Positions 25,569-63,622 of a stretch of 64,000 bases of DNA are shown here, piece by piece. The notes beneath the pieces are model-generated. The model was not told the origin of the DNA and ran no database searches. It saw nothing but the letters and a program-made list of their open reading frames with translations. Numbering within the stretch: the stretch's first letter is position 1; each line of letters opens with the position of its first letter. The translations under genes were made by a program, and so were the position numbers. This stretch comes from a virus: the IMG/VR virus record IMGVR_UViG_3300035181_001203, positions 48,654-112,653 of that record; one strand, 5' to 3'.

Positions 25569-25910
25569 CTATTCTACTTTCTTTTTAAATCCACCATATG
25601 AAATTGCGGGTTCTACTGTTGAAAGAATACCGCCATAAATAGCACCTTGCCCTAAACCATGTTTAGCGGCTTTACCAATAGCTGCCCTTGTTCCATTAGT
25701 ATTATTTTTAAATGATGATAGACCACGCTTAAATGCGCCACTTTCACCACCGCCAATTTCCCGTAATTTATTAAACGAAGCTAGGCCAGCATCAGCCGCA
25801 GCTAAACCGCCAGTCAAAGCTACACCACTAGCAATAATTGGATGACGTTTAGCCCAACCAACAATACCAGTTTTCTGTTGTTGTTCTACTGCTAATTTAA
25901 TTAAACTCAT
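25569..25910 (-). CDS. MSLIKLA-tagged basic Gly/Ala-rich protein (putative virion cargo)
   Basis: MSLIKLAVE; hydrophobic Gly/Ala segments. Confidence 0.7.
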   Translation of the reverse strand: MSLIKLAVEQQQKTGIVGWAKRHPIIASGVALTGGLAAADAGLASFNKLREIGGGESGAFKRGLSSFKNNTNGTRAAIGKAAKHGLGQGAIYGGILSTVEPAISYGGFKKKVE

Positions 25911-26101
25911 TTTTTACGTTCCTTATGGTATAGATGAGTACCAATACCAAGGCCGGTTAATCCACCTATACCTAATAACATTTTACCTTTATGCCTATTA
26001 AGAAAACTTTTTGCTTTCATAGGCACAAATGTTGGAACAGCATTTTTAAGCCTCTCTGCGGCCTGTTCCATATCTTTACTTGCTAATTTAATGAGACTCA
26101 T
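25907..26101 (-). CDS. MSLIKLA-tagged small protein with Gly-zipper helix (64 aa; start re-called)
   Basis: MSLIKLASKD...LLGIGGLTGLGIGTHLYHKERKK. Confidence 0.7.
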   Translation of the reverse strand: MSLIKLASKDMEQAAERLKNAVPTFVPMKAKSFLNRHKGKMLLGIGGLTGLGIGTHLYHKERKK

Positions 26102-26381
26102 TTTTATGATCCTTATATTTTTTAGCTGCATAAGCAGCAATGCCAGTAATAATACTACCCACTCCAATTCTTTTAACCATTTTTCTTGCTTTTTCTTTTT
26201 TTATTTTTTGAATCATACTCTTATATCTACCTTGTGCTTTTTTAGCATGTTTATTAGAATTTAATAAAGCAATAAAATCATCAGGATCTTTACCTCTCAT
26301 ATAATGCATTTGTGATCTTGCAAGCACAGCATCATCACTAAGAGGTTTTTTATTATAAGCTGCAATTTTTATTAAGCCCAT
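26088..26381 (-). CDS. MGLIKIA-tagged basic protein with C-terminal hydrophobic helix
   Basis: MGLIKIAAY...IGVGSIITGIAAYAAKKYK. Confidence 0.7.
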   Translation of the reverse strand: MGLIKIAAYNKKPLSDDAVLARSQMHYMRGKDPDDFIALLNSNKHAKKAQGRYKSMIQKIKKEKARKMVKRIGVGSIITGIAAYAAKKYKDHKNESH

Positions 26382-27232
26382 TTTAATCTCTGCATTATCA
26401 TAGCTAATTTTTCAAACCAAGGACTATTTGAAATACTTTCCCAATCTGTAGAAAGTTTTTTAAATTTCTCAGTATTACCACCAGGCATATCTGGATGATA
26501 TTTTTTAGCTGCATCTTTATAAATTTTCTTTGCCTGAGCTTTTGTAGTAATCTTAGTATGATCTATACCGCCATATTCTTTAAAGAAAGATGCATGATCA
26601 GCAGTTGGTCTAGTTGGGGGAGGCGGGGGAGGACGATAGCCACTACCTCTTGAACTGCTATTTTCAAATCTTTTAAAGAAATCATCATAGAAATCATTGT
26701 GCTTGCTTGACCAACCATTTCCAAAACTGCTACGCTGATTAGATCTCTCACGCCGAAAGTTATTAGATTTTCTTATAAGATTTTTCAATCGCTTCTTATT
26801 TTCGTCAAATTTTCCAGCCTTAATTCCACCAACCGTTCCACCAATCGTTCCACCAACAGCAGCACCAATTAAAGATCTTTTTAACACACTTGCTCCTGGT
26901 TTTTTAACCGCTCTACCATTTTTCCATTCAATATTTCCATAAATATCTGTTTTGTATGCAGTTTTAGCACCAACACTAGCACCACTAAGAGCGCCAATAC
27001 TTGCCATAGTTCCTACAAATCCTTTATTTCTTTGAACTGGCCTAATCATTTGTTTAAAATTCATCGCAGCTAATTTAACAATGTTCTTAGCCTTTTTAAT
27101 TCCAGTAGCAATAGCTAGTCCTTCTGGTGATCCAGATTTACGCATAGCTTCAGCTATATGTATAGCCTTTTCTCTAATTTTAGGATCTAAATTTTTCATT
27201 GAATTCGGATAATCATCTTTAGACCAAGGCAT
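26372..27232 (-). CDS. Modular protein: YdaT-like N-terminus, Gly-zipper helices, C-terminal J-domain
   Basis: MPWSKDDYPNSMKNL...KAI.IA; GAAVGGTIGGTVGG; YKDAAKKYHPDMPGGNTEKFKKL. Confidence 0.75.
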   Translation of the reverse strand: MPWSKDDYPNSMKNLDPKIREKAIHIAEAMRKSGSPEGLAIATGIKKAKNIVKLAAMNFKQMIRPVQRNKGFVGTMASIGALSGASVGAKTAYKTDIYGNIEWKNGRAVKKPGASVLKRSLIGAAVGGTIGGTVGGIKAGKFDENKKRLKNLIRKSNNFRRERSNQRSSFGNGWSSKHNDFYDDFFKRFENSSSRGSGYRPPPPPPTRPTADHASFFKEYGGIDHTKITTKAQAKKIYKDAAKKYHPDMPGGNTEKFKKLSTDWESISNSPWFEKLAMIMQRLKWA

Positions 27233-27298
27233 ATTATCCTCTTACAAATTTAGAACATTCAATATTAGATTTTAATATTTTAGCATTGCTCGTTAAAC

Positions 27299-27493
27299 TC
27301 ATTTATGTTTCCATCCTCTAGAGACTTTAGCAAAGTTAAGTTTACGACGAATAGCTGGATCGGTTACAGTTTTTAATTTTTCTTCAATAAGACTAATAGG
27401 AATGGGTTCTCCTTTAGGAATGCCTAAATATTCGTGAAGGCTTCCTTCATGAGATTTTTTAATTTCAATAGAGGCTAATTTGATTAGGTTCAT
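27299..27493 (-). CDS. MNLIKLA-tagged small basic protein
   Basis: MNLIKLAS..GSLHEYLGIPKGEPIP...RRKLNFA; GAGGA RBS. Confidence 0.7.
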   Translation of the reverse strand: MNLIKLASIEIKKSHEGSLHEYLGIPKGEPIPISLIEEKLKTVTDPAIRRKLNFAKVSRGWKHK

Positions 27494-27534
27494 TTATTAT
27501 CCTCGTTTTTCTTAATTCTATAAGCAATTGCAAA

Positions 27535-27660
27535 TTATTGCAGCACCATTTTAATTTTAGTGGCAATAGCCATACCTTCATCACAAGCTTCAACGATTCT
27601 ATTTGCAATTGCGATAGCTTTACGTTGAATTTTAGGATGAAGGTATTTTACAAGGTATTT
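27535..27660 (-). pseudogene. Startless paralogue of the YdaT-like domain
   Basis: KYLHPKIQRKAIAIANRIVEACDEGMAIATKIK vs KNLDPKIREKAIHIAEAMRKSGSPEGLAIATGIK in 26372-27232. Confidence 0.6.
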
Positions 27661-28070
27661 TAATACCTATTATTTCTAATCAATATATCATGTGGAAGTC
27701 TAGCCATTTCTCTATAGTTTTCATCTATGTAAGCTTGTTCACCAACAAAATCATTATAGCTATTTAACTCATTTACAATTTTATGATAATTAGGTTCTTC
27801 CTTTTCAGCCTTTTTATGTGCTCTATTACTATGTATTAAATTAGCAATACCTAAACCAATAATAGCGCCACCAGCACCAGCTAAAGCACTATTAGTTAAT
27901 CCAGATTTGGTTGCAGCACCTAATCCAGCACCAGCAGCTAAACCAATTAAAGCACTTTTACCATAAGGGCCATCTGTAGCATTCATATGACGTTGAATCA
28001 TATTATCATATGATTTCTTAGCTTTAAAATGTTTAGATTGAAAATCTAATGCAATCTTAATAATAGACAT
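27660..28070 (-). CDS. MSIIKIA-tagged glycine-zipper protein
   Basis: ALIGLAAGAGLGAA...AGAGGAIIGLGIA; GGAGG RBS. Confidence 0.7.
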   Translation of the reverse strand: MSIIKIALDFQSKHFKAKKSYDNMIQRHMNATDGPYGKSALIGLAAGAGLGAATKSGLTNSALAGAGGAIIGLGIANLIHSNRAHKKAEKEEPNYHKIVNELNSYNDFVGEQAYIDENYREMARLPHDILIRNNRY

Positions 28071-28193
28071 TATTACCTCCAGTTATTCATATTTTGGAAT
28101 TTATGTTTTTATAATATAAAGAAGCGGTTAACATATTTCTACTATCTTGATTAATGCCAGTTCCATAAATCGTAGTTGTTGATATCCAACTCT

Positions 28194-28289
28194 TTATCTA
28201 AGTAATCCACGACGTTTGTTAGCAATACCAGTTAGTGTATGATATATTAAAACATTTGAGGTTATCTTTACCAGTTTAAATAAACTCAT
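28194..28289 (-). pseudogene. Short or decayed MSLFKLV-tagged ORF (31 aa)
   Basis: ATGA-coupled; MSLFKLVKITSNVLIYHTLTGIANKRRGLLR*. Confidence 0.35.
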
Positions 28290-28531
28290 ATTTTCTTCCA
28301 AGTCTGCGTGAACTCTTCTGGATTGAACAATGACCCCTGGACTCCATTATCCACTTTTTTAACCACCTTTTCAATAGTTTTCACGGCAGGAGTAATTTCA
28401 ACTCCAGATCGTCTAACTTCTCCCCAAGCCTTAGCAGCAGCATGTCCTGGTTTCATTCCACCTTTAACAAGATCATGAAATATTGCAGCTACTTGCGGTG
28501 GAAGTTTAGCCGATAGTTTAATTAAACTCAT
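28286..28531 (-). CDS. MSLIKLS-tagged ChaB-like protein
   Basis: LPPQVAAIF...AAAKAWGEVRR resembles the ChaB pattern. Confidence 0.6.
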   Translation of the reverse strand: MSLIKLSAKLPPQVAAIFHDLVKGGMKPGHAAAKAWGEVRRSGVEITPAVKTIEKVVKKVDNGVQGSLFNPEEFTQTWKKI

Positions 28532-28656
28532 TTTTATTTTCCATTAATTTATCAATATTAATTTTATTTTTATCAATAGTTTTTGAAAGAAATTAAAGTA
28601 TTTTTATTTTGATACCTAGGCATTATTTTTGTTACCGTATAGCCCCATAAATTCAT

Positions 28657-28851
28657 TTAGCTAAAGCTTGGATTTCTCCGATTTTTTTTTGTGTCATCTT
28701 TGAGATGCTTGACAGGAATTTCAATAGCTTGTTTAAATAAACCTTTAGCAATAGGAATATTCCAATTAGGCCCCATACCTTTTTTTACCTTAAAAGCATT
28801 AGGAATATCTGTTCTCGGGCCTGATTCGATAGCTAATTTAAATAAACTCAT
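28657..28851 (-). CDS. MSLFKLA-tagged small basic protein
   Basis: MSLFKLAIE with internal LFKQAIE; TAATG coupling. Confidence 0.65.
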   Translation of the reverse strand: MSLFKLAIESGPRTDIPNAFKVKKGMGPNWNIPIAKGLFKQAIEIPVKHLKDDTKKNRRNPSFS

Positions 28852-29165
28852 TATTTCTTTCCTTCACTTTTCTTATGCTTTAAATGTCTATGAAGTCCAT
28901 AAGCAGCAGCAGCTAAACCAACAGCACCAATTAAGCCACCAACTTTACGACTAGTTAATAGTTTTTTAACTGATTTTTTAGTTTCAACTTTAGGAGCGGC
29001 ACTAGGAGCGGCACTAGGAGCGGCACTAGGAATTGTAACTTTAGGTTTAATACCTGATTCATCTTGAGGATGAATTTCCCAAGGTCTAGTTTTTAAAGCT
29101 TCCGCATTAGCAGCATCCATTTCCGCTTGCGTAACTCGTTTACCGGCAAGTTTGATTAAGCTCAT
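28851..29165 (-). CDS. MSLIKLA-tagged protein with PSAA repeats and C-terminal hydrophobic helix (start re-called)
   Basis: MSLIKLAGK...VGGLIGAVGLAAAAYGL. Confidence 0.7.
   Translation of the reverse strand: MSLIKLAGKRVTQAEMDAANAEALKTRPWEIHPQDESGIKPKVTIPSAAPSAAPSAAPKVETKKSVKKLLTSRKVGGLIGAVGLAAAAYGLHRHLKHKKSEGKK
28991..29030. repeat. 12-bp tandem repeat x3 (encodes PSAA)
   Basis: (TAGGAGCGGCAC)x3. Confidence 0.9.
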
Positions 29166-29308
29166 TTCTTCATCCCCCAATTAAGAATGGTTTTATTAGG
29201 TTTAGTTCTCATTTGTGGCTTTTGTCTTTGAGTAGCTGGCAGTAAACGTGGATCTTGATCGTTTTGAGCTATAGTAGAAACTTCTAGGGCTAATTTAATA
29301 AGGCTCAT
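29162..29308 (-). CDS. MSLIKLA-tagged 48 aa protein missed by the ORF track
   Basis: MSLIKLALEVSTIAQNDQDPRLLPATQRQKPQMRTKPNKTILNWGMKK*; ATGA overlaps at both ends. Confidence 0.7.
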   Translation of the reverse strand: MSLIKLALEVSTIAQNDQDPRLLPATQRQKPQMRTKPNKTILNWGMKK

Positions 29309-29706
29309 GGCTCAATTCCTTTTAGTAACCAATCCATTGCTGGATCCATATAATTAGCATGTGTAAATGTTGATATATACCTACAATTTTTATTTATTCC
29401 ACCAGCATTAATTAAAGCTCTATTTAGTTCACTTAATTTTGCACTAGAATCATAAATTATAGCACTTCTATTTAATCCACGGCCAACTAGATAAGCATTT
29501 GCTATCGCCATTAGCTTAGCAGTATCACCACAAATATGTTCAATATTAATTAAATTTAATAGTAGCCCAAAATTCTTAGGTAATTTTTTTGTAATATTAT
29601 TTATAAATTCTTCTGGAATTGCTTCTAGGTCATGACGACAAATACGACCATGAAATTCAATACTTAATCCCCATTTATTTATATCTATTTTATAATTTTT
29701 ATTCAT
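29305..29706 (-). CDS. STAS/SpoIIAA-like protein
   Basis: IEFHGRI...FGLLLNL...GLNRSAII...AMDWL pattern. Confidence 0.45.
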   Translation of the reverse strand: MNKNYKIDINKWGLSIEFHGRICRHDLEAIPEEFINNITKKLPKNFGLLLNLINIEHICGDTAKLMAIANAYLVGRGLNRSAIIYDSSAKLSELNRALINAGGINKNCRYISTFTHANYMDPAMDWLLKGIEP

Positions 29707-30410
29707 GTTAATCCTCTATTATTTTTAGAAAGATATTCAGGATCAACAGAAATTCCTTTATAAGTAATTTTATTTAATTCACCATTAAGATCAATTAGAG
29801 TTTTCTTTGCATCTGATATTGTCCAGTTAATAACAACAACAACATAATCAAAAATTATTTTAGTTTTAATTGTATTATTTGTATATATATCATCATCGCA
29901 TACATCGTTAATAACATTATATAATTGTCTTATATGATCTGAATTCCAGTAATTAAATCTATCAATTACAACTTGTGGAATTTTTTGATCTAATGCTTTT
30001 GCTTCATATCTTCTTACAATTTCATTGATACATTCTAGCATTCTTGTATGATATGCTGTTGGAGTTAATTTTTCTAGATCACCTTTTTTTAGAAAATTTT
30101 CAAACGAATGTCTAATTGATGATAATTTAAAAATTAAAAAATCTTTAAAAATTGCATCACGAAGTCTTTCTGGAATATATAAATTTTGAATTTCATAACT
30201 TAAATATGTTTTCAAACTATAGAACATATGATGATCTATTAAATCTTTCTGTTTTATTATTATACTTCTCCTTGGTTTTTTTATTTTTATCCATAAATAT
30301 TTGAAAATTAATATATTTGCAAAAACAAAAGTTATCAAAAGTACATAAACTATAATATCATACATTGTATGCCAACTTAAAAAATCAATAATTAATTTTG
30401 TTAATTCCAT
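29703..30410 (-). CDS. Single-pass membrane protein (possible lysis regulator)
   Basis: N-terminal TM then soluble helical domain; next to holin/spanin-like genes. Confidence 0.45.
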   Translation of the reverse strand: MELTKLIIDFLSWHTMYDIIVYVLLITFVFANILIFKYLWIKIKKPRRSIIIKQKDLIDHHMFYSLKTYLSYEIQNLYIPERLRDAIFKDFLIFKLSSIRHSFENFLKKGDLEKLTPTAYHTRMLECINEIVRRYEAKALDQKIPQVVIDRFNYWNSDHIRQLYNVINDVCDDDIYTNNTIKTKIIFDYVVVVINWTISDAKKTLIDLNGELNKITYKGISVDPEYLSKNNRGLT

Positions 30411-30411
30411 T

Positions 30412-31179
30412 TTAATGATTCCTTGATCTATCTAATACATAATAAGTTATTGCGCCAGCTATAAATGACCCAACAATTTTATAAACAGTTTTTTTATTTT
30501 CAATTACTAATGTTTTTTGTAAATTTTTGATTTCTTGATCTGAAATTTTATCTTTATCCTTTAATGAAACTATAAGTACGTCTTGATTATTCTGTATATT
30601 TTTAAGATCTTGTATAAGAGAATCTTTTAGTCCCATTCCTTCTCTTAAAGCAAAATTTGACTTAAGAAGTATATTATTATTCTCTGTAAGAATAGGCCCA
30701 TTTACGTGCCAATTTTCTGCATCATAAACGAGATTATAGGTAGTAGGAGCAGTTAATAAAAATTTATTCTCAGGTGTAAATTCAACTTGTTTATCATTAT
30801 ACATTGCATATATTTTTTCTTTTACTTGTTCAGCATTTTTAGCCATTTCAATATGTTGTGTTTTTTGTAAATTATCTACTTGCTTATTAAGTACGGCTAT
30901 TTGAGCGTCCTTAACTATAACTAACTTTTCTTTATCTAATGCATTTTTCTTGATATCCGCAATAATTGATTCTTGTGCTTTTATTTGCACATCCTTTAAA
31001 TTTCTATCTTTTTCAAGTAATTGATAATTTGCATTCAAATTTTGTAATTTTTTATTAATATAATATCCATAAGTACCAGCAACTATTACTATAAAGGCAA
31101 CTATTACAATTCCATACTCATAAATTTTATTTTTAATTTTAAAGAAGACTTCAATTAGTCCTGTCATAATTATGTCCAC
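30412..31179 (-). CDS. Spanin-like membrane-anchored coiled-coil protein
   Basis: N-terminal TM, long coiled coil, C-terminal hydrophobic helix. Confidence 0.45.
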   Translation of the reverse strand: MDIIMTGLIEVFFKIKNKIYEYGIVIVAFIVIVAGTYGYYINKKLQNLNANYQLLEKDRNLKDVQIKAQESIIADIKKNALDKEKLVIVKDAQIAVLNKQVDNLQKTQHIEMAKNAEQVKEKIYAMYNDKQVEFTPENKFLLTAPTTYNLVYDAENWHVNGPILTENNNILLKSNFALREGMGLKDSLIQDLKNIQNNQDVLIVSLKDKDKISDQEIKNLQKTLVIENKKTVYKIVGSFIAGAITYYVLDRSRNH

Positions 31180-31565
31180 TAGGCAACTGGCGTATTTCCT
31201 GATTGATTAGAAGCAAATTTTAACTCATTAATTTTATTAACAACAGCCTGTAAACCACTGATTCCCATTCCACTACCCATCAGTACTAGAACTTCCCCTG
31301 GAATTTTTATTTCGCGTAAAGTAGTAACACAAATCAAAATAAAACCACCAATACCCCAAACCAAATTATTTATTCTAGTATGCGAATAAGCTCCATCGTT
31401 CCCAGTTAAAGCTTTATCTAATCGAGATATTATTCCTAAAAATATATTATTGATTAATCCTAAAAATTTTTCAAAATATATTCTTCCGGCACTAATATAT
31501 CCGGTGATCAATCCAATTAACAGATAAGCAACACAATATATGTATATACGCATAATTCCTCTCAT
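31179..31565 (-). CDS. Holin-like multi-pass membrane protein
   Basis: About 3 TM segments; SHTRI..LVW motif. Confidence 0.45.
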   Translation of the reverse strand: MRGIMRIYIYCVAYLLIGLITGYISAGRIYFEKFLGLINNIFLGIISRLDKALTGNDGAYSHTRINNLVWGIGGFILICVTTLREIKIPGEVLVLMGSGMGISGLQAVVNKINELKFASNQSGNTPVA

Positions 31566-31584
31566 TAAAATAGTATCATAGTTT

Positions 31585-45079: not shown

Positions 45080-45543
45080 GTGAATATTCCATCTTATTTT
45101 ATTAAGAGGTTTTTAAGCTTTCGCCAAAGACGCTATTCCACGTCTCAAAATATTAATAGCCGCATTAATATCTCGATCCAAAATTAAACCGCAAGAACAT
45201 TCATGGATTCTATCTGATAATTTTTTATCAATTATTTTTCCACATCTAGAACATTCTTTAGTTGTATTTTTTGGATTAATTAGAACTACTCTTTTACCGG
45301 CCCATTCTGCCTTCTATAAATTTAACAAAGATTTGAATTAGAAATTTTCCATTGCGTGAGATATGTAGATAAATCATATAAAGAAATGTTTTTCTTATCT
45401 TTTTCCAATGCATTTTTATGAAGTTCTAAAGTTTTATTATAAATATATCTACATCCTTCTAATGTAGCTTCTAACTTACTGAGTTGCAACTTCGTAGGAT
45501 ATAGTCTATATTTGAAAAATTTATGCAAGTAAGACATCAGCAT
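45080..45543 (-). mobile_element. tnpB: Internally deleted IS200/IS605-family tnpB remnant
   Basis: N-terminal KYRLYPT...GCRYIYN joined out of frame to KAEWAG...TTKECSRCG...HECSCGLILDRDINAAINIL (stop at 45113); right-end-like TTCAC ending at 45080. Confidence 0.85.
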
Positions 45544-46592: not shown

Positions 46593-48077
46593 ATGAGTTT
46601 GATCAAATTAGCTAAAAAAGAAAAAGAAAAAGAAAAAGAAAAGCTTAAAGAACAAAAATTCAAACCCCAAAAACATCAAATAAGTGCTGTTAAAAAATTT
46701 GAAAAAAGTAAATCAGAAATATTTTTTCACGGTTTAGGAAGTGGCAAAACATTAACTAGTATTATGGCAGGTGAGAGAACCCCTGGAAATAAATTAGTGT
46801 TAACTCCAGCTTCTCTTGCTCATAATTTTAGAAAAGAATTACATAAATTTAATATATCAGATCAAAATTATAAACTTGTATCTTATGAAAAGTTTAGACG
46901 TAATCCAGATAAATTTATAGATAAATATAAACCATCTATGATTATTGCTGATGAATTCCATAGAGCAAATAATATGGATTCTCTTACTGGTGATTCATTA
47001 AGAAAAGCTAGATTGAAAACCAAAAAGTTTATAGGTTTGACTGGATCTTTAGCTCAAAATAGACCATCAGAAATTGGTGAGTTATTACATACTGCAACCG
47101 GAAAACCAGTATTAGGAAATAATCAAGAAGAGTTTGATAAAAAATTTATTAAAAATCGTATAATTAAACCTAGTTTATTTGGTCGTTTCATAGGTATAAA
47201 ACCAGGGGCTATTGAAGAACCTAAGAATTTAGATAAATTTAAAACTATTGCTGACCAGTATATTAGTACGTTTGCTGGTGATGAAGAATATAAAAAACAT
47301 TTACCTATTGTAGAAAGAGATGTTGTTAGAATAAAAATGGACAAGCCTCAACAAAAAATTTACGACTACACTTTTGGTAAGGCTCCAGCGTGGGTTAAAT
47401 TTAAAATAAGACATAATATGCCGACATCTAAGCGTGAGTCCGTTAATATTAACTCTTTTTTAATGGGTAGTAGGCAGGCGTCAACAGCTATTCAGCCATT
47501 CGGGGTACAATCTAGTACCCCAAAACTCAATGCAGTTTTGCATGACTTAGAACATGGAATAAAAACTGATAAGAATTTTAAAGGTGTAGTTTACTCAAAC
47601 TTCCTTGAAGGTGGATTACTGCCTCTTGGAGAAAAATTAAAAAAACATAATATTCCATATGGATCATTCACTGGACAACAAACGCATTCTGAACGAAATT
47701 CAATGATTCATGATTATAATAAAGGAAAATTAAAAGTATTATTGTTATCACAGGCTGGCGGTGAAGGTCTTGATCTTAAAGGTACAAAATATTTAGGTAT
47801 AATGGATCCTTCATGGAATCCTGAAAAAACTGAGCAAGTAGTAGGAAGAATAGCAAGATTTAAATCACATGAAATGCTGCCAGAAAATGAACGTAAAGTA
47901 ATAGTTAAAGAATATTTATCTGAACCAAAATTAGGATTACTAGGTAAAATCAAAAAAGTATTTAAACCAGAAACACATGCAATTGGAACTGATGAATATA
48001 TTCGTAATAGATCTCTTGAGAAAAAAAATCTAAATGATAAATTTACAAACATTCTGAAAGGAATGTCGAATGTCTGA
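46593..48077 (+). CDS. SNF2-like SF2 helicase/ATPase with N-terminal MSLIKLA tag
   Basis: HGLGSGKT, DEFH, LTGS, AGGEGLDL, WNP..EQVVGRIAR. Confidence 0.9.
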   Translation: MSLIKLAKKEKEKEKEKLKEQKFKPQKHQISAVKKFEKSKSEIFFHGLGSGKTLTSIMAGERTPGNKLVLTPASLAHNFRKELHKFNISDQNYKLVSYEKFRRNPDKFIDKYKPSMIIADEFHRANNMDSLTGDSLRKARLKTKKFIGLTGSLAQNRPSEIGELLHTATGKPVLGNNQEEFDKKFIKNRIIKPSLFGRFIGIKPGAIEEPKNLDKFKTIADQYISTFAGDEEYKKHLPIVERDVVRIKMDKPQQKIYDYTFGKAPAWVKFKIRHNMPTSKRESVNINSFLMGSRQASTAIQPFGVQSSTPKLNAVLHDLEHGIKTDKNFKGVVYSNFLEGGLLPLGEKLKKHNIPYGSFTGQQTHSERNSMIHDYNKGKLKVLLLSQAGGEGLDLKGTKYLGIMDPSWNPEKTEQVVGRIARFKSHEMLPENERKVIVKEYLSEPKLGLLGKIKKVFKPETHAIGTDEYIRNRSLEKKNLNDKFTNILKGMSNV

Positions 48078-50901: not shown

Positions 50902-52877
50902 ACTTAGATTCATTTAATAGTCTAGAATCATTTAAGCTTTTTTTTAAATCTGTATATGATTCTATACGAAATGTAGCTTCTATAGCTCAATCTGCTGCAA
51001 ATAGTTATGCAGATTTACAAGATGCTTTTGATCGTAGAGTAGTAATATCAGAAGAGTATAATGGTAGACAATCTCAAAATATTAATATATCAACAACATT
51101 TGGTGATGATGTTGGTGGACTAAATTCAAAAGAATTTAGATTTTTATATGGATCTACTTTAAAATATGACAGAGTACTACCAATAGACCATCAAGATACA
51201 TCAGAAGTTGTAAATCTTCAAACACTTATAAATTTATTATCATCTAATCCTAACACTTATTTAAAAAATACGGGTGATACTGCAACTGGATCTTATACTT
51301 TTGGTCCAGATCCATTATTACCAAATACGACAATAACATTAAATGATGTTTTATTATCATTAAATGCGGGTGGTAATACTGCAATAGTCGGGCCAGAAGC
51401 AACGGCTATTATGAACAGATCTGCTGTGCAAGCATTAATTGCTGCAATTCCTCCTTCAAGCGTAAGCGAAAATACTATTACTATAGGTGCTGGTAGCACC
51501 GCTAATAGTGGATATGCTTCATTAGGATCAGATTTAGCTATAGCTTGGGTGACTGGTCCATCTACTTTTTTTAGTGGTTCTACAAATCCAGAAATAACTC
51601 TAAATACTCCAGTTACATTTGATACTATTTATAGTTATTCATTATCAAGTGAAAACGCTGAAACAAATTCATTAATTTCTGATAATGATGCATGGTGGCA
51701 GATGGTTGATGCACCATCTGGAAATAGTTTTAATCTTATATTACAAGCTGTTGGAGGAACCGTTTCTGGATATATGATTCCAAAATTAATTGTTATTGGA
51801 AAATTAGTATCAACAGCATTAAGTATAACTACTCAAGATAAAAGTATAATGGCCGCAAATGGTCAAGTATATCCAATGTTAGCATATTTAACATTAACAT
51901 CAAGTGGTGGAGTAGCTCCTATTACATGGACTTTATTAACTTCAGATTACTCAGCACAATTTGCCCCCGGATACTCTAACATTGTTCAAATTAGTGTTCC
52001 TAGCACCGGATTATACCCAATATCAGTAAAGGCTACAGATGCAAATGGAGAAGTAGCATCTCGTATAATTAATATAACAATTACAGATTATACAGTAGTA
52101 ACATTAGTAATTACAAATGTAGATCAATCCGTTACTGCTGATACTTATCCATTTAATATTACCACATTATTAAATTATACTGGTGGTACGGCACCTATAA
52201 CTTGGGTAATATCAAGTTATACTGCATTAACAACAGCACCAACTATTACTAGCGGTAATCAATTAAATGTAAGTTTCCCTAGTGCTGGTACATATACAAT
52301 TACAGTTCAAGCTACAGATAGTGCTAATACTCCACAGGTTGTTTCAAAAACAATAACATTTACCGTAAGTAATTATGTTACACCACCGCCACCACCATGC
52401 TTTGAATCGGATGAAACGTATATTCTTTTAGAAGATGGATCATCTAAACTTTTAAAAGATATGAGAGCTGGTGATAAAATTTTAACCATAAGTGAAGCTT
52501 GTTTAAAAACTAAACTTTTGTCTGTAACTTCATCCACCGTAACTGGAGTAACATTAATTCCTTCTAATGATCCAAAAGGCAGCATTACTTGTCATAATAT
52601 AAAGGCTACGTTAGGACATCCTTGGTCAACAATAGATGATCCTGATGGTAATTTATGGATAAGAAGTGAAGCAATTATTCCAACAACCAAATTAATAGAA
52701 GTTTTTAAAGACACAAATAGTTATCGTGGAAGAATTACAGAAGCATCAACAACAAGTAAAACTGGTGTTATTAGAGTTGCTGGTAATATGACAACTTTAG
52801 CTTCAACTTATTGCGTAAGCTCTAGTCCTATTGGACCGTGGTTTGTAGTGCATAATATGATATCCACAACGTGTTAA
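50898..52877 (+). CDS. Tail fibre/adhesin with Ig-like repeats and C-terminal Hint domain
   Basis: Two GG.APITW...G.Y.I.V.ATD repeats; PPPPP-CF...ATLGHP...VVHN; ATGA-coupled start at 50898. Confidence 0.75.
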   Translation: MNLDSFNSLESFKLFFKSVYDSIRNVASIAQSAANSYADLQDAFDRRVVISEEYNGRQSQNINISTTFGDDVGGLNSKEFRFLYGSTLKYDRVLPIDHQDTSEVVNLQTLINLLSSNPNTYLKNTGDTATGSYTFGPDPLLPNTTITLNDVLLSLNAGGNTAIVGPEATAIMNRSAVQALIAAIPPSSVSENTITIGAGSTANSGYASLGSDLAIAWVTGPSTFFSGSTNPEITLNTPVTFDTIYSYSLSSENAETNSLISDNDAWWQMVDAPSGNSFNLILQAVGGTVSGYMIPKLIVIGKLVSTALSITTQDKSIMAANGQVYPMLAYLTLTSSGGVAPITWTLLTSDYSAQFAPGYSNIVQISVPSTGLYPISVKATDANGEVASRIINITITDYTVVTLVITNVDQSVTADTYPFNITTLLNYTGGTAPITWVISSYTALTTAPTITSGNQLNVSFPSAGTYTITVQATDSANTPQVVSKTITFTVSNYVTPPPPPCFESDETYILLEDGSSKLLKDMRAGDKILTISEACLKTKLLSVTSSTVTGVTLIPSNDPKGSITCHNIKATLGHPWSTIDDPDGNLWIRSEAIIPTTKLIEVFKDTNSYRGRITEASTTSKTGVIRVAGNMTTLASTYCVSSSPIGPWFVVHNMISTTC

Positions 52878-54126: not shown

Positions 54127-55053
54127 ATGTTCACAGACCATATTCATGATCAAATTGGAAAATATAGAGTTGGAGTTATTGTTGACTCTATGCCTGATTT
54201 TGTAAAAGAAGCAGAAGAAAAAATTGTTACAGAAGATTTAACAAAACTCCCTGATGGTGCTTTTGCTTATTCTGATGGCGTAAATAGATTTTTCCCTATT
54301 CATACTCCTGAACATACTTGGCTTAGTCATGCATATTTTGAAAAATTTGCCAGTCAAATTGATGAATCTATTAGATCCGAGATTGAAGATCGAATTGATG
54401 ATGCATATTTAGCCTTTGAACTTCCACTGAATAATTTAGTAAAATTTGCTTCTCAAGAAGATCATATTGATGCTTTACATAGTCTTTCTATTGAAATGAA
54501 TAACTTTATTGATAATTATAAAAGATTACCAGTTCGTCAAAGGCGCAATAAAGCTAAAGAAATTTTAGCAAGAGCATTTGCTTTAGGCAAAGCAGAACAT
54601 ATGCATGATCTTATTAAACAATATGCTGGACATAATTTAAATCCAAATTATTCTCAAGCTTTTGCTTCGAGGATGAAATACTTCAAAGAGAATGCTCCTG
54701 AAAGAAAAATTTTAATGCAAATGCAAGATGAAGTTCCAAATCATCTGGCAGAAAGAGTAGCAGAAGCATTACAAATTTTTGATGAAAAAACAGGATTACA
54801 TAAATATTACGATAATGAAATTATGGATCCTTACTATGAACTCCTATCCCCTGGAGAAATTTCTGAATCTCCAATATATTTTGATGGTGAAACAATCCTT
54901 CCATCAAAATTAAAAAATTTTGATCACACTTCTTTATCAGATATTCTTAATGATCATTTATTAGGTGGCTTGAAACTTGATCCAATCAATACTTTAAAAA
55001 ACATGAATCCAAACGTTAGAATTATTGTCATTAAAAGAATTAATCATGCATAA
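54127..55053 (+). CDS. Putative head assembly/core protein
   Basis: LPDGAFA...RFFPIHT; two KFASQ sites; upstream of portal. Confidence 0.4.
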   Translation: MFTDHIHDQIGKYRVGVIVDSMPDFVKEAEEKIVTEDLTKLPDGAFAYSDGVNRFFPIHTPEHTWLSHAYFEKFASQIDESIRSEIEDRIDDAYLAFELPLNNLVKFASQEDHIDALHSLSIEMNNFIDNYKRLPVRQRRNKAKEILARAFALGKAEHMHDLIKQYAGHNLNPNYSQAFASRMKYFKENAPERKILMQMQDEVPNHLAERVAEALQIFDEKTGLHKYYDNEIMDPYYELLSPGEISESPIYFDGETILPSKLKNFDHTSLSDILNDHLLGGLKLDPINTLKNMNPNVRIIVIKRINHA

Positions 55054-55495: not shown

Positions 55496-55496
55496 A

Positions 55497-57338
55497 ATGA
55501 GCAATATATCGAATACTAGCGTCGTCGCACCAGAGAATAGTAGACGCTACCCATCGAATGGCATAGATTATCCACTTAGGTTTTTCAATATGCTCCATTT
55601 TCAGCGTCCTAAAACGCTGAATGAAATATTTAAGTGGTGCATAATTTTAAATGAATCACACGGTCTTTTAGATCGTATAACAGATACTATGGCAAGATAT
55701 CCAGTTACCCATATTGTAGTAACTGGAGACACTGGAGAAAATAATTCATTTTGGTCAGATCATCTTAACGAAACTGTAAGTATTCAAAATGAATTAGTTC
55801 AAAATGGTAAAGATTATTATACATTTGGCAACTGCATAGTAACTATTGTACCTCCATTCAAAAGATATTTAGTTTGCCCAAAATGTAATACTTATAAACG
55901 TCATTGTATTAATGAAGATAATTCAGATGATAGAATTGACTGGAAATTTCATAATTTTAATTTTATTTCAAAATGTAAAAATAAAGAGTGTAAATATAAT
56001 GGTATAATGGAAGTTAAAGACGAATTGTTAACTGGTGAAGAATTTGCAAATAATGTAAAAATTCAAAGATGGCCTATTGCTCATATTAAAATTAGGGATT
56101 TAAGTATTGCTGGTAAAAAACGTATTTATTATAAAATAGAAGATAAATATCGTAAGCCAATTTTAAGTGGAGATAAGTTTGTTGTAGCTAATGTCCCATA
56201 TACATTTATATTAGCTTGTAAACAAAATAAAAATTCAGCAATTATAGAACTTCCACCTGAATTAACATTCCATTATAAATATGAATCTATTACAGAACCA
56301 GAATGGGAAGGATTATCTAAACCATTTTTCTTCTCTGCATGGAAAGATATCTTCATGAGTTTTGTTTTACGAAAAGCTCAAGAATGTATTGCTTCAGATC
56401 ATTTAATTCCAAATCGTTTTATATTTCCTACCGCTACCACTGGTGGTACAGATCCCTTAAGTAAAATTGACGGATCTGCATGGGTTCAAACAGTTACAAC
56501 GCAATTAAAGAGACAACAAAATGATCCAAATGAAATTGGAATCGTTCCCTTTCCATTAGGATATCAAGCTTTAGGTGGTCAAGGCAAAGCTATGTCTCTT
56601 AGGGAAGAAATTGAACTTCAAGATCGTAGAATTCTTACACAAATGGGTATTCCGCCAGAATTAATTTATGGTGGTATGACTTGGAGTGGAAGTAATATAT
56701 CATTAAGAATGCTTGAAAATTTATTTATGTATTACATTGGTAAGCATAATCAATTTATCAAGTTTTATACAAATTATGTATCTAGAGTTTCTGGGATTAA
56801 AGCACCAACAAAAGCTATGTTATCACCATTCAAGATGGCTGATGATATTCAACAAATGAATGCCCTTAGTGCATTAGGCGCACAAGGTAGAATAAGTGAA
56901 ACTACTGCTTTAAGTCAAGTTGGAAATGGCATTAATCTTTCTCATGAAGCAGATCAAGCTGAAAAAGATGCAGATAGTATGAAGCGTTTACTTAGAGCAA
57001 GACAAATGATGAATACTGAAGTAACTAATGAAATTAATAAAATTAATCAACTTGAGAATGTTGATTTACAAGGTGAAGCTATTTTAGAACAAGGTAAAAT
57101 TCAACAAGCAGCAGGTAGTCAATTGGTTAATGGCATTACAGCTTCGACAACTCAAGGAATTGTAAATCAATTAAATAATGTTAAAGATCCATTAGAACGA
57201 AGATCTTTACTGATAGAGCTTCAATCAAAAGACTCGCAAAAATATAATGAAATAGTATCTGCATTAAATGGCGTTTCTAATAATTCATTACCAGAAGCTA
57301 AGTTCGCTAAATCTACGCCAGAAAAGGCTAAAGTATGA
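55497..57338 (+). CDS. Portal protein with Cys-rich insertion
   Basis: DYYTFGNCIV, GLSKPF, ILTQMGIPPELIYGG..WSGSNISLRMLEN, ISETT; position before neck/tail genes. Confidence 0.7.
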   Translation: MSNISNTSVVAPENSRRYPSNGIDYPLRFFNMLHFQRPKTLNEIFKWCIILNESHGLLDRITDTMARYPVTHIVVTGDTGENNSFWSDHLNETVSIQNELVQNGKDYYTFGNCIVTIVPPFKRYLVCPKCNTYKRHCINEDNSDDRIDWKFHNFNFISKCKNKECKYNGIMEVKDELLTGEEFANNVKIQRWPIAHIKIRDLSIAGKKRIYYKIEDKYRKPILSGDKFVVANVPYTFILACKQNKNSAIIELPPELTFHYKYESITEPEWEGLSKPFFFSAWKDIFMSFVLRKAQECIASDHLIPNRFIFPTATTGGTDPLSKIDGSAWVQTVTTQLKRQQNDPNEIGIVPFPLGYQALGGQGKAMSLREEIELQDRRILTQMGIPPELIYGGMTWSGSNISLRMLENLFMYYIGKHNQFIKFYTNYVSRVSGIKAPTKAMLSPFKMADDIQQMNALSALGAQGRISETTALSQVGNGINLSHEADQAEKDADSMKRLLRARQMMNTEVTNEINKINQLENVDLQGEAILEQGKIQQAAGSQLVNGITASTTQGIVNQLNNVKDPLERRSLLIELQSKDSQKYNEIVSALNGVSNNSLPEAKFAKSTPEKAKV

Positions 57339-58255
57339 GTTTAATTAAATTAGCAGGATTACAATCTTTAATTATGCCAACCGTAGGAACTACTGCTGCT
57401 ATGAGTGGAAGTCCTTTTTCATGGTTAATGAAAAAGAGTCCTAAACAAAAGATTTTTGGATTTATTCCAAAGCCTAGTTTAAGAAGAAATGTTCAGGAAA
57501 TAAATATATCAACAATAGCAAATGCTATTAATAATATTAGAGATGGAAAAGTGCAAGATTCTACTAGATTCCTATCTGGATTAGCCGATTCTACAATAGG
57601 TCATGCTGGCAAATTAGGAATTGGAATTGCTGAGAAATTAAATAAAACTCCAGGGGTTTCTAAATTATATAAATATTTAACAAATAGAGTTATATCAAGA
57701 GATGGAAAAATACAAATAGATCAATTAGAAAAACTATTAAAAACTGGTAAAAAAATTAATGATATTAGTTCTAAAATTAGCAATAATCCATTAACATTGT
57801 ATGGAGCAGGTATTGGTTCTATAGTGGGTGGTTCTAAAACTCCAACTGATGATAATTCAAGATTAAAAAATACTTTAAAAGGATTTATGGTTGGTGGAAG
57901 TGTTGGTTTTGGAGCTAAGAAAATAGCAAATTCAGTAAAAAATAAAACAAATCCATTGGCATCTATACATAAACATTATTTTGCTGATGATTATTGGAAG
58001 GAAAGAATACAAGGAGCAAACAAAAGTGTTATTGGTCCTGTATTAGCAAATGCTTTTACATCTTCTCCAGAAAGTAGAGCAAATCGAATTAAGAGATTTA
58101 ATGCGTGGCGTGATTTTAACCAGGATGTTTTTAATAAAAATAAATTTGTAAATTTATTCAATACCACAAAAGATAGTTTTAAAACAAAAAATAAAAACAA
58201 GAGAACACTTATTGGCTCATTAGGTAATAAACTATTTGGTGAAGATGAAAAATGA
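57335..58255 (+). CDS. MSLIKLA-tagged basic protein with Gly-rich hydrophobic helices
   Basis: MSLIKLAGL...GAGIGSIVGG...GFMVGGSVGFGA. Confidence 0.7.
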   Translation: MSLIKLAGLQSLIMPTVGTTAAMSGSPFSWLMKKSPKQKIFGFIPKPSLRRNVQEINISTIANAINNIRDGKVQDSTRFLSGLADSTIGHAGKLGIGIAEKLNKTPGVSKLYKYLTNRVISRDGKIQIDQLEKLLKTGKKINDISSKISNNPLTLYGAGIGSIVGGSKTPTDDNSRLKNTLKGFMVGGSVGFGAKKIANSVKNKTNPLASIHKHYFADDYWKERIQGANKSVIGPVLANAFTSSPESRANRIKRFNAWRDFNQDVFNKNKFVNLFNTTKDSFKTKNKNKRTLIGSLGNKLFGEDEK

Positions 58256-58701: not shown

Positions 58702-58714
58702 GAGGATAAATATA

Positions 58715-60634: not shown

Positions 60635-60636
60635 TT

Positions 60637-61602
60637 ATGTCATATTTACCGCCTCATGTTTCAGTAACTCAGATTCTTACTAGAGCTAGTCAGAATCTTG
60701 TTAATAGTGAACTATTGCCTACTTATGTAGGATCTCTTAATCAAGTTGTAAATAATACTCCAATTTCTTTGATTTATCCTGTTACAAATACTACGATTAG
60801 CTATTTAGGACTAAAGGCTGGTGCAATAGTTAACCAGTCAAGTGTTCGTATTACAGTTAATAATGCAATAGTACAAGTATCAACAAATACAATATCAGCA
60901 GGAGTTTTTACCGCTGGATCCGCAATAGTTAATCAGACTGGAGCATTTGTAAATACTAAAGCTGGAGATTTATTAGTTCTACCTAATAATGGTGGAACCT
61001 ATACAGTTCAATCAGTAACTAGTAATGATAGCTTAGTGCTAACTACCCCAACTAGTTATGCTCCAACCACGGGAAGTTATACAATACAAAGATTAATTCC
61101 TTCAGTAAATGCTGATTTTGGAACTGCTGTTTATAATAGTGGATCATTTACAATTACACAATTACAATATTCTGGAATGGATATTCTTTCCGGCTCTGCG
61201 TCATTAAGTTATGTTGCTTTAAGAAAAGATTTAACTGGATTTTATTCAGTAACAAATTATGATCAACTCGTAGCTGATATGGACATTGAACCTGAAAGTG
61301 GTATTGGTTTTTATCTTGGTCAAATTGCACTAGCAGCTAATGGCGGAACTACAGTATTAGCTTATATAACCCCAGATAATACTCTTGCAAGCTTTAACAA
61401 AGCTTGGAGCGAATTAGCAGTTAGACCTGATGTTTATTTTGTGGTTCCAATTAGTACTGATCCTACGATTAATGCTGGGGCAGCTTCTCATGCAATAGCA
61501 ATGGCCGATCCTGATATTGCTTACTTTAGAATGGCAATTGTAAACGCACCAATTACTTTAAATAAAACTTTAGTATCTAATGATTCATTTACTAAAGCTT
61601 AA
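60637..61602 (+). CDS. Tail sheath protein, N-terminal part
   Basis: MSYLPPHVSVTQ (sheath-type N-terminus), DVYFVVPIS..AASHA..M..FRMAIV. Confidence 0.65.
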   Translation: MSYLPPHVSVTQILTRASQNLVNSELLPTYVGSLNQVVNNTPISLIYPVTNTTISYLGLKAGAIVNQSSVRITVNNAIVQVSTNTISAGVFTAGSAIVNQTGAFVNTKAGDLLVLPNNGGTYTVQSVTSNDSLVLTTPTSYAPTTGSYTIQRLIPSVNADFGTAVYNSGSFTITQLQYSGMDILSGSASLSYVALRKDLTGFYSVTNYDQLVADMDIEPESGIGFYLGQIALAANGGTTVLAYITPDNTLASFNKAWSELAVRPDVYFVVPISTDPTINAGAASHAIAMADPDIAYFRMAIVNAPITLNKTLVSNDSFTKA

Positions 61603-61613
61603 TCGGAGATAAA

Positions 61614-62585
61614 ATGAGTATTTTAATTACAGTACCCGGTGAAACCTTTTTAACAAAAGGTGTAAGAATTGGAGATACTGTTAAAATATTAACAGTAAAT
61701 GGCTCAGATGTAGATTCTACTCATTATCTTTTAAAGAGTGGATCTAACCAATTAGACTATGACGCTCTTTTAGTTTCTGAAGTTGTAAGTGAAACATCTT
61801 TCAATATGGAAGCTTATAAAAATGGCGTTACTTTAGACATTGATGCCACGATGTTGAATTTAGCATCGAAACAATCCTTTACTTTTGATATTATTCATAA
61901 TCTTTCAAAAGATGAACAAGTTGATCAAATTTGTGCAATAGCACAAGGATATGCAAATAAGCGTGTAGTATTAGTTTGGCCTCCAAAAGCAGATTATATT
62001 ATTAATAGTAAAAAAGTTACAGTAGATGGATCTGCTTTAGCTGCTGCTTTAGCTGCTGCTAAATCAATTTATCCTGCTCAACAGTCAATGACTAATATGC
62101 CTTTTGCTGGCCCTTATCAACTTTACTATTCAAATAATTATTTTACACCAACACAACTAAATAGATTGAGTGATGCTGGTGTATTAGTTTTAGTTCAAGA
62201 TGCTGTTGGTGCTGATATTTATGCCAGACACCAAAAAACTACAAGCAATGTATCAATTCAAGAACAAGAAATGAGTATTACAAATGCTATTGATAAAATA
62301 TCAATTGATATAGCAGCAATAGGAAAACCCTTCATAGGTAAATTTAATATTACTCAAGATTTACTTACGCAATTACAAGATGTATTTAATACTTATTTAT
62401 TTAATGCTCAAAGTCATAAATCTCCATATTGTGGAAGTTTAATTTTAAGTTATACTGCTCCTGTACTTAGAGCAAATTTAGATGGTCAAAATACAGATTT
62501 ACCCCCTGGAAGACTTCAAGTATCCTTAACAGTTGAAATTGGTTATCCAGCTAATTATATTGATATTCTTGTTTACATTCAATAA
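61614..62585 (+). CDS. Tail sheath protein, C-terminal part
   Basis: RVVLVWP, QLNRLSDAGV, RHQKTT, EMSIT, FIGKFNIT, YPANYIDI. Confidence 0.75.
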   Translation: MSILITVPGETFLTKGVRIGDTVKILTVNGSDVDSTHYLLKSGSNQLDYDALLVSEVVSETSFNMEAYKNGVTLDIDATMLNLASKQSFTFDIIHNLSKDEQVDQICAIAQGYANKRVVLVWPPKADYIINSKKVTVDGSALAAALAAAKSIYPAQQSMTNMPFAGPYQLYYSNNYFTPTQLNRLSDAGVLVLVQDAVGADIYARHQKTTSNVSIQEQEMSITNAIDKISIDIAAIGKPFIGKFNITQDLLTQLQDVFNTYLFNAQSHKSPYCGSLILSYTAPVLRANLDGQNTDLPPGRLQVSLTVEIGYPANYIDILVYIQ

Positions 62586-62598
62586 AAGGTGATTAATT

Positions 62599-63327
62599 AT
62601 GGCAAATCAACTTTCAATTAAAGATTTACTTGGCGCAAATGGTGATGGCGCAAGTAGCTGGAATTGGAGAGAGTCATTCGTTCAATTAGACGAAAATATG
62701 GCTACTCCAGGCTTATTCATTGCTTCTGAATCTACACTAATTGCTTTTGGTCCTGCTTCAGCAACCGCAGCATTTGATGTAGTGAAAGTTGGTTTGACTC
62801 CTAATATTTCTATTAGTCAGCAAATTCCACAGCAAAGATTACCTGAAATTGGATCAGTTAGAGTTCATATCTTGAATGGTGTACCTATTGGTGGTGGCAC
62901 AATATCACGCTTAGTTTATAATGGTCCATCACTTATGAGATATGCTTATGGTAATCTTTATGATGATCAAGGTAATCCAACAGCATTAGCTTTACAAGGT
63001 ATGGCAACTGGCGCCGGACCCGCACAAGACTTTACCACAAATCTCTTTAAGAGAATTATGTTAAAGCCTGATAAAATTATGCAGGGTAATAAAGATACGC
63101 AACTTTGGTTATCAGCTTGGGATACAAGATTACGAACGCCTTTCGGCATTTGTATGTATTTCCAAGATATTGCTGGTAATGCCGTTGGTGGTGTTTATGC
63201 CGAAGGTGCTAAAATTAACTCTCATAATATGTCTCAATCTGCTGGACAGTTAATCATGGTTGAAGGCATCACTTTCGCTTTTGATCGTTTAGTTCCTGTC
63301 CGTGGTATTGGTAATTCACAATTATAG
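62599..63327 (+). CDS. Tail tube protein
   Basis: Follows sheath; QRLPEIGS, ISRL..NGPSL, EGITFAFDR. Confidence 0.65.
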   Translation: MANQLSIKDLLGANGDGASSWNWRESFVQLDENMATPGLFIASESTLIAFGPASATAAFDVVKVGLTPNISISQQIPQQRLPEIGSVRVHILNGVPIGGGTISRLVYNGPSLMRYAYGNLYDDQGNPTALALQGMATGAGPAQDFTTNLFKRIMLKPDKIMQGNKDTQLWLSAWDTRLRTPFGICMYFQDIAGNAVGGVYAEGAKINSHNMSQSAGQLIMVEGITFAFDRLVPVRGIGNSQL

Positions 63328-63337
63328 AGGTGAGCAG

Positions 63338-63622
63338 ATGAGTTTAATTAAAATTGCTGCAAGAGGCGATGTTTTATTTAGAAATGGAATTTTAGCTGCA
63401 ACAAAAGAAGCTGGAACCCCAGGGGTTAATGCAGCTTCTAGAATACTTAGATATTTACCAAAGTTCAAAGATTCAAATAATTTAAAAGTAATTAAAGACG
63501 TTGACAATATTGGCAATGCTGTTGATAAGTATGTAAAAAATGCAAAAATATCTAACACATCATCAATGAGTAATTTTAGAAAAGCTGTAGCAAAAAATCC
63601 GAAACTTGGTAAATTACTTTAG
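63338..63622 (+). CDS. MSLIKIA-tagged small basic protein (start re-called)
   Basis: GAGGTG RBS before ATG 63338; MSLIKIAARG. Confidence 0.7.
   Translation: MSLIKIAARGDVLFRNGILAATKEAGTPGVNAASRILRYLPKFKDSNNLKVIKDVDNIGNAVDKYVKNAKISNTSSMSNFRKAVAKNPKLGKLL

Follow-up and report, generated by a model that had tools for sequence, protein, structure and literature searches.

MSLIKLA, a seven-residue N-terminus shared by unrelated basic proteins of an uncultured phage, as a candidate head-loading and clipping signal

Introduction

Why would a phage place the same seven residues at the start of proteins that have nothing else in common? The question is raised by a 64,000-nucleotide stretch of the IMG/VR virus record IMGVR_UViG_3300035181_001203 (positions 48,654 to 112,653), hereafter called the window, which forms the final 64 kb of one 112,653-bp virus contig (31.8% GC) of an uncultured freshwater/peat phage. 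Between window positions 25,569 and 63,622, an initial annotation had noticed at least 12 open reading frames (ORFs) whose products begin with variants of the peptide MSLIKLA, and had proposed that this is an independent packaging tag, cleaved after K-L-A, which marks a variable set of proteins for loading into the head and delivery with the DNA. The model for such a proposal is phage T4, in which the unrelated internal proteins IPI-III and Alt share only the capsid-targeting sequence (CTS), removed by the protease gp21 (PMC3012670). According to the analysis presented here, MSLIKLA is probably a loading and clipping signal of the T4 CTS kind, written in a new code and most likely recognised by the prohead protease. 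This reading is favoured because the core of the tag recurs in the head proteins and in the head protease of related phages.

In regard to these relatives, the comparisons involved uncultured IMG/VR phages with a portal identity of 65-87%, among them G001, a complete genome of 157,395 bp with terminal repeats. The closest cultured relatives, Salmonella phage Arash and Vibrio phages D69, D148 and D181, are distant, with a portal identity of 24-27%. The contig itself is truncated, as its first gene is cut by the end and covers only residues 1-206 of the 346 residues of a relative's homologue. The truncation point (window 63673-64000; genome 1-607) falls exactly where the relatives hold their head module, composed of terminase, tagged ORFs, protease, scaffold-like proteins and capsid protein. 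Terminase, capsid protein and head protease are not encoded on the truncated 112,653-bp contig, and it is because of the truncation that neither capsid protein nor protease turned up when the window was searched by PHROGs, Pfam, the ESM Atlas and hhalign comparison with proteins of Arash. The head protease was found in the relatives.

Results

The tag is conserved at the level of the peptide

All 12 ORFs named in the initial annotation, re-read from the sequence, start with M-[SGN]-[LI]-[IF]-K-[LI]-[AS], nine on the minus strand and three on the plus strand. A pattern search of the whole contig added four tagged ORFs, namely a doubtful one of 31 amino acids (aa) at 28289 on the minus strand and three outside the window (genome 9959, 10433 and 10872), giving a total of 16 in 112.6 kb, which is a lower bound because the contig breaks off at the head module. 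The number of tagged starts expected by chance among the 143 ORFs is 0.0012, while the strict core [LI][IFV]K[LI]A was seen only once in the interior of the contig proteins, against 0.7 expected.

Codons within the tag vary synonymously, as had been reported: serine is encoded by AGT, AGC and TCT, thus by both codon families, and leucine by TTA, TTG and CTN (five codons). Codon positions 1 and 2 of the tag are 81% identical, position 3 only 51%, and the flanking 21 nucleotides 28-38%, which equals the background. Since the first two codon positions are conserved while third positions and flanks are not, selection acts on the peptide and not on a DNA repeat. The exact 20-nucleotide tag DNA occurs inside the clade in 13 IMG/VR and 18 metagenome stretches and was not found outside it.

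The divergence that begins right after the tag is equally clear. When the tag is removed, 64 distinct tagged proteins collected from the clade group into 45 families, and the 60 regarded as reliable into approximately 45. Among the same 60 proteins, M and K are invariant, S and both leucines are each present in 55, I in 52 and A in 56; residue 8 is small or hydrophobic, and conservation is absent thereafter. The tag is carried by no cultured phage, Arash proteins are without a common N-terminal tag, and a literature text search found the string MSLIKLA in no paper.

Concerning the position of the tagged genes, the statement that none belongs to the early genes was borne out, as no tagged protein is encoded in the block of 36 small plus-strand genes (7461-25378) or in the 23-gene replication block. 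The accompanying statement, that all of them lie in lysis and morphogenesis blocks, has to be corrected: the tagged protein of 494 aa is an SNF2-family helicase located at the junction of the replication and virion blocks, and the "lysis" label of the main array of tagged ORFs was derived solely from its membrane-protein-like neighbours.

The tag is modular and its carriers form a coherent class

The set of tagged proteins turns over from genome to genome. This genome holds about 16 tagged ORFs and G001 about 15, of which only about five are orthologous between both. Gain of the tag can be followed in the helicase (46593..48077, plus strand), where MSLIKLA and a Lys/Glu-rich linker, about 22 aa in all, were added before the body in this genome only; the body is untagged in G001 (60% identity, with G001 residue 4 aligned to residue 23) and in Arash Gp217 (35% identity). 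The protein family encoded directly 3' of the portal gene bears the tag in all relatives that were examined. Here an invariant tag precedes a stretch of 3-40 unalignable residues, behind which a conserved body begins.

The tag is not strictly N-terminal, as had been supposed, since conserved internal copies exist. The clearest case is a 286-aa J-domain protein (26372..27232, minus strand), composed of about 50 N-terminal residues, the tag copy NIVKLAA (residues 51-57), a glycine-zipper segment and, at the C-terminus, a J domain containing HPD (DnaJ, E 2e-5, below the Pfam cut-off). Its G001 orthologue keeps the internal copy GLVKLAS at residue 51-52 behind the conserved 50-residue domain, while the homologue in L068 begins directly with MSLVKLA. 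Likewise, the G001 proteins h091 and h031 carry the tag behind 12-17 extra residues. It is possible that the J-domain protein is an injected co-chaperone recruiting the host DnaK. A ChaB-like N-terminal domain, considered for the same protein, was not reported by Pfam and was dropped.

In their chemistry, the tagged proteins form a coherent class, basic and Gly-rich. All 16 have an isoelectric point (pI) above 9.3, with a median of 10.25, compared with a median of 6.0 for untagged proteins, only 12.6% of which exceed 9.3 (Mann-Whitney p 3e-10). Their Gly content is high (p 5e-5) and their content of acidic residues low, also in comparison with size-matched small proteins, and clade-wide 93% of tagged proteins have a pI above 9. 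In many of them the C-terminal part is a weakly hydrophobic, Gly-rich helix with a basic tail behind it, and sub-threshold glycine-zipper matches were obtained for several. Searches of the tagged proteins with PHROGs and Pfam yielded only weak glycine-zipper matches and the helicase.

In relatives, tagged ORFs adjoin a prohead protease

The head module missing from the contig could be inspected in the relatives. In G001 it starts with the large terminase subunit TerL (phrog_675, E 2e-55), followed by a 399-aa protein, a 225-aa acidic protein, four tagged or tag-like basic ORFs and the protease; three acidic proteins and one further protein separate the latter from the major capsid protein (MCP; phrog_2522 E 7e-7, Pfam Phage_capsid E 0.004). 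The same order is present in L074, L075, L076 and L046/L067, with two to five unrelated tagged basic ORFs directly before the protease gene and proteases of 60-72% identity. The tag is also present on the acidic protein that follows the protease in L074.

The G001 protease (h093, L032:11248-12969, 574 aa) matches the PHROG "head maturation protease" over residues 105-241 (phrog_18299, E 3.4e-11). Its AlphaFold2 (AF2) model, built from an alignment of 25 homologues, has a predicted local distance difference test score of 72.6, with a core above 90. When the model was compared by VIA-align, the best match was T4 gp21 (5jbl_A; Z 9.4, root-mean-square deviation 2.7 Å over 125 residues), with the proteases of varicella-zoster virus (1vzv_A, Z 8.4), cytomegalovirus (6.3) and the Kaposi's sarcoma-associated herpesvirus (6.0) also matched and the next unrelated fold at 6.9; Foldseek alone gave no significant match to the model. 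As modelled, the protease has the fold of T4 gp21 and herpes assemblin. Residues H123, S176 and S187, candidates for the catalytic His and Ser, are invariant in the 25 homologues. The family is encoded at more than 500 IMG/VR loci. Two separate observations concern this family: invariant C186, C189 and C200, just after a conserved VSMG, look like a zinc-binding insert, and some distant homologues hold inteins (Hint and LAGLIDADG Pfam domains).

The tag core recurs in head proteins

The core of the tag, L-I-K-L-A, can be generalised to the pattern [LIVMFY]-x-K-x-A, whose counts were compared with those in shuffled sequences. In G001, it was found nine times in the 225-aa acidic protein (h088; 1.2 in shuffles), ten times in the 399-aa protein (h087; 1.5), four times in the acidic protein h096 (0.28) and six times in the protease (1.3). 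In the contig under study, it is present six times in g003, encoded outside the window (0.87), and three times in g131 (0.42), an untagged acidic protein of 308 aa (54127..55053, plus strand) with the motif at residues 25, 71 and 104. Judged by alignment columns, the sites are conserved with G001 in six of six cases in g003/h035 and in three of three in g131/h111, although neighbouring residues differ. As far as its sequence indicates, the 308-aa protein is likely to be acted on by this machinery or to be one of its partners. The scaffold-like proteins are acidic, with a pI of 4.2-4.7.

Similar conservation is seen in the other head proteins. The MCP retains M-E-K-V-A at residues 20-24 in three species, while K30, A32, K245 and A247 of the protease are at least 90% conserved in the 25 homologues (26-71% identity), and the two sites that they define lie on either side of the gp21-like domain (residues 51-248). 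Behind the last motif site of the protease, residues 482-574 have a pI of 10.2 and 15% Gly, thus resembling tagged cargo. At 73 distant IMG/VR loci encoding this family, the density of K-x-A at residues 13-36 exceeds that further in by a factor of 2-2.7, with the consensus [ED][ED][LM][E]K[TLVI]A[ASE]. In distant relatives Glu often precedes the K (32%), and only 11 of the 60 tags continue as A-x-[ED]. The pattern extends to cultured phages. In GC-rich Arash, gp220, gp223 and gp225 hold nine, eight and six copies (0.76, 0.82 and 0.52 in shuffles), the protease gp222 has the motif at residues 28 and 216 and the MCP at residue 25; the Vibrio phages D69, D148 and D181 likewise carry it at head-protein sites.

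These results strengthen the analogy with the T4 CTS, as in the relatives the tagged ORFs immediately precede the gene of a prohead protease that has the gp21/assemblin fold, and the tag shares its core with head proteins. They also take away the supposed independence of the tag, since it is the N-terminal form of a motif that a large protease family uses throughout. For the same reason, the tag could be a clip site rather than an address. According to such an explanation, the motif would only be a site of cleavage or a mark of maturation, the tag would be the shortest possible propeptide, and the cargo would enter the prohead by charge, basic cargo meeting acidic scaffold, or by other contacts. 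The presence of the same core in the interior of scaffold-like proteins, MCP and protease, where addressing is unneeded, is in agreement with this, as are the basic nature of all cargo, the acidity of the scaffold-like proteins and the occurrence of the untagged helicase homologue in Arash virions. Yet one enzyme has gained the tag together with a linker and about 45 unrelated families strictly retain it, so the tag itself seems to confer something, and T4 combines the two functions in a single peptide (PMC3012670). We consider a pure clip site rather unlikely.

Virion proteins of Arash

Mass spectrometry of Arash virions detected the helicase homologue Gp217 with 38 peptides and 1148 spectra, and the particles also contain RNA polymerase subunits and a sigma factor (PMC10585845). 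In our contig, genes for a 1993-aa fused beta-beta' RNA polymerase (genome 3592-9573), a sigma factor and baseplate or fibre proteins lie beyond the window. Because the Arash homologues of RNA polymerase, sigma factor and helicase are abundant in virions, an injected transcription apparatus with a RapA-like helicase is suggested for this phage by analogy.

The main array of tagged ORFs and its neighbours

The main array (25569-29308) lies on the minus strand. In the order of rising coordinates, its first member is a 113-aa protein (25569..25910; MSLIKLAV..., pI 10.2) that has a glycine-zipper segment and a tagged G001 orthologue of 55% identity. This is followed by proteins of 64 aa (25907..26101; MSLIKLAS...) and 97 aa (26088..26381; MGLIKIAA...), the former with a C-terminal Gly-rich hydrophobic helix and the latter with a C-terminal Gly-rich helix, each before a basic tail, and then by the J-domain protein described above. 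The next tagged products have 64 aa (27299..27493; MNLIKLAS...) and 136 aa (27660..28070; MSIIKIAL..., with a central glycine zipper), succeeded by the doubtful 31-aa ORF (28194..28289; MSLFKLVK...), whose coding score is low and which is perhaps a remnant. The remaining ones have 81 aa (28286..28531; MSLIKLSA...), 64 aa (28657..28851; MSLFKLAIE...), 104 aa (28851..29165; MSLIKLAG..., with a C-terminal Gly-rich helix and basic tail) and 48 aa (29162..29308; MSLIKLALE..., with a tagged G001 orthologue of 72% identity).

Four untagged genes (29305..31565, minus strand) head the block to which the array belongs. Three of them encode N-terminal hydrophobic segments and are holin- or spanin-like by shape only; a confident family match was not found for the four, and a phmmer search of g098 against the PDB gave zero matches. 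In the relative L068, a long (Ala-Met)n / (Gly-Tyr/Asp)n simple repeat, open in two frames, adjoins the tagged array (L068:2036-2294).

Because the array lies behind genes with hydrophobic N-termini and not by head genes, a membrane-related role inside the cell has to be considered as a minority explanation. The small tagged proteins could be lysis, exclusion or host-takeover proteins acting on membranes, and the tag a signal for sorting, for a chaperone (DnaK/J) or for degradation, such as a ClpX N-terminal degron; S-L-I-K-L presumably fits the ClpX N-motif polar-hydrophobic-hydrophobic-basic-hydrophobic. The Gly-rich hydrophobic helix and basic tail at the end of many tagged proteins, the holin- or spanin-like segments encoded just before the array and the J-domain protein inside it would all suit such a role. 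Less compatible are the tagged ORFs that, in five species, immediately precede the protease gene within the head module, the core shared with conserved MCP and protease sites, and the tag on a soluble helicase. In addition, the internal copies (residue 51-52 of g089/h155; behind 12-17 residues in h091 and h031) misfit a signal that depends on a free N-terminus. Taken together, an intracellular role appears quite improbable.

A series of small ORFs that vary behind one constant leader also resembles an array of precursors for a modifying enzyme, in the style of ribosomally synthesised and post-translationally modified peptides or of radical S-adenosylmethionine enzymes. However, Pfam and PHROGs searches of the array neighbours (not of every gene in the genome) revealed no modifying enzyme, seven residues would be a very short leader, the tag is also present on proteins of 300-500 aa, and its motif is shared with head proteins. 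A leader function is hardly credible.

Tagged ORFs among the virion genes

Two tagged ORFs of the window are found among structural genes of the plus strand. The first (57335..58255) encodes the basic 306-aa protein directly 3' of the portal gene; its AF2 model is all-helical, of middling confidence, and a significant fold match to it was not found. An alpha-pore-toxin fold was dismissed, the matching rows being weak (E ~0.1, template modelling score 0.25). The second (63338..63622; 94 aa, MSLIKIAA...) follows the tube gene, and tagged ORFs occupy the same position in L003/L004 and L015.

This second ORF, together with the three tagged ORFs outside the window that follow a gp6-like baseplate wedge gene, could indicate that the tag loads cargo into the tail, either the tube lumen or the baseplate, and not into the head, as is known for extracellular contractile injection systems. 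The signals of those systems are tens of residues long, compared with seven here, and a tail signal would fit poorly with the conserved cluster beside the prohead protease and with a motif common to head proteins. Loading into the tail is thus very improbable.

Other features of the contig

Several further genes could be recognised. A DNA polymerase III alpha subunit is encoded at 41884-45012, a portal protein homologous to Arash Gp204 at 55497..57338 (plus strand) and a tail tube protein homologous to Arash gp237 at 62599..63327 (plus strand). Two adjacent sheath-like ORFs of 321 and 323 aa (60637-61602 and 61614-62585, plus strand) both match the single 706-aa Arash sheath gp236 (E 4e-8 and 6e-40), and the same pair is present in G001, so that the sheath gene seems, by these matches, to be split or duplicated in this lineage. 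A protein of 659-664 aa in the virion block (50883-52877) contains PKD/Ig-like domains, and only its first 130 residues are kept in G001, as is typically seen in decoration or fibre proteins whose distal part has been swapped. A 55-aa ORF on the minus strand (45322-45489) shares 66% identity with residues 15-67 of a G001 ORF of 367 aa; it is probably what is left of a longer gene, which may have come from a mobile element. Finally, the heptamer CCAGGGG occurs 25 times and its complement 20 times in the contig, with nearly all copies within ORFs on either strand (window 2602-63425); no tie of these copies to promoters or tagged genes was seen.

Discussion

The observations can be joined into one scenario, in which MSLIKLA would be the N-terminal form of a hydrophobic-x-Lys-x-Ala motif read by the head-assembly machinery, most likely by the prohead protease with the gp21/assemblin fold. 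Late in infection, tagged proteins would be captured into the prohead core alongside the acidic, motif-rich scaffold-like proteins. The captured cargo would consist of small, very basic proteins, often with a glycine zipper, together with the SNF2 helicase and the J-domain protein. The protease could then cut at or next to the motif, whereby it would trim the N-arm of the MCP, free itself from its own flanks, shred the scaffold and remove the tag, so that the motif sites in the scaffold-like proteins, the MCP and the protease flanks would be putative cut sites. The basic cargo would stay with the DNA and be ejected with it into the next host.

Several points weigh against this scenario. The link to protease, MCP and terminase comes from relatives with 65-87% portal identity, the contig itself being truncated. 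The motif may be a docking rather than a cut site, since it has no invariant Glu and the published gp21-type proteases cut after Glu. The E-K-x-A of the MCP N-arm could be structural, given its conservation across the whole family. The main array is far from the head genes, behind the membrane-protein-like genes. With regard to Arash, 116 "virion" proteins were listed for the preparation (PMC10585845), which was for that reason probably not stringent, and the presence of the untagged helicase homologue in virions implies that this cargo can do without the tag in Arash.

A more far-reaching version can be put forward only tentatively, as we think it somewhat less probable than its opposite. An undescribed, large branch of proteases with the gp21/assemblin fold would read hydrophobic-x-Lys-x-Ala and probably cut after Ala, like herpes assemblins, instead of at motifs ending in Glu. 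One clade would have reduced this motif to a seven-residue N-terminal address, the shortest known, which would load 15-20 interchangeable proteins per genome, basic and either membrane-active or enzymatic (including the SNF2 helicase and the J-domain protein), into the head for injection. The resemblance to herpes assemblins that a cut after Ala would bring is to be taken as a lead and not as a result.

If the scenario is true, the "address and clip" principle of T4 would extend to an unrelated and environmentally widespread lineage with a very short and different code, and a new substrate specificity would be predicted for the fold common to herpesvirus proteases. Dozens of small basic proteins would become probable injected effectors, candidates for anti-defence, membrane-channel or host-takeover functions. 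For laboratory use, so short a tag of seven residues would offer a compact means by which proteins could be loaded into phage heads.

Among known systems, the T4 CTS is the closest in principle. In both cases a short N-terminal peptide is present on unrelated, basic proteins of fast turnover and on one enzyme, the genes adjoin a protease of the same fold, and the motif recurs in head proteins at putative processing sites; the T4 scaffold is cut at many copies of the CTS-type motif (PMC5694885). On the other hand, the tag has seven residues and the CTS about ten, without any sequence similarity, and the core is hydrophobic-x-K-x-A instead of L/I-x-E. At least 16 tagged genes are present on an incomplete contig, compared with a handful in T4, and the protease is a 574-aa, multi-part protein; packaging and cleavage are predictions here.

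Published gp21-type proteases, namely those of T4, phiKZ, 201phi2-1 and SPN3US, cut after Glu at L/I-x-E, S/A/G-x-E or A-x-E (PMC5694885). In the giant phages (phiKZ gp175, 201phi2-1, SPN3US gp245), N-terminal propeptides are cut at S/A/G-x-E, and the virions contain an RNA polymerase and ejection proteins; in SPN3US, the N-terminal 15 residues of the paralogues gp53 and gp54 are identical (PMC5694885, PMC10052503). Features in common are a protease of the gp21 fold that seems to process itself, propeptides and scaffold-like proteins rich in the motif, and, in Arash, a virion RNA polymerase and helicase. The present phages differ in having no fixed Glu, in carrying the tag on unrelated families and not on paralogues, and in their genomes of 113-157 kb, which are not jumbo.

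The herpes assemblin precursor pUL26 is organised as protease domain, R-site, scaffold and M-site and is cut after Ala; in pseudorabies virus, the R and M sites are YLQA-T and VQA-S (PMC4498786). Apart from the fold, the phage protease resembles it in the succession of a protease domain, a conserved Ala-Ser site (LEKVA-S, residues 243-248), a helical part and a site near the C-terminus. It is unlike pUL26 in the Lys two residues before the Ala, in its bacterial host and in sharing no sequence similarity. What is new in comparison with all these systems is the code, the length of only seven residues of the tag, and the number and uniformity of the cargo.

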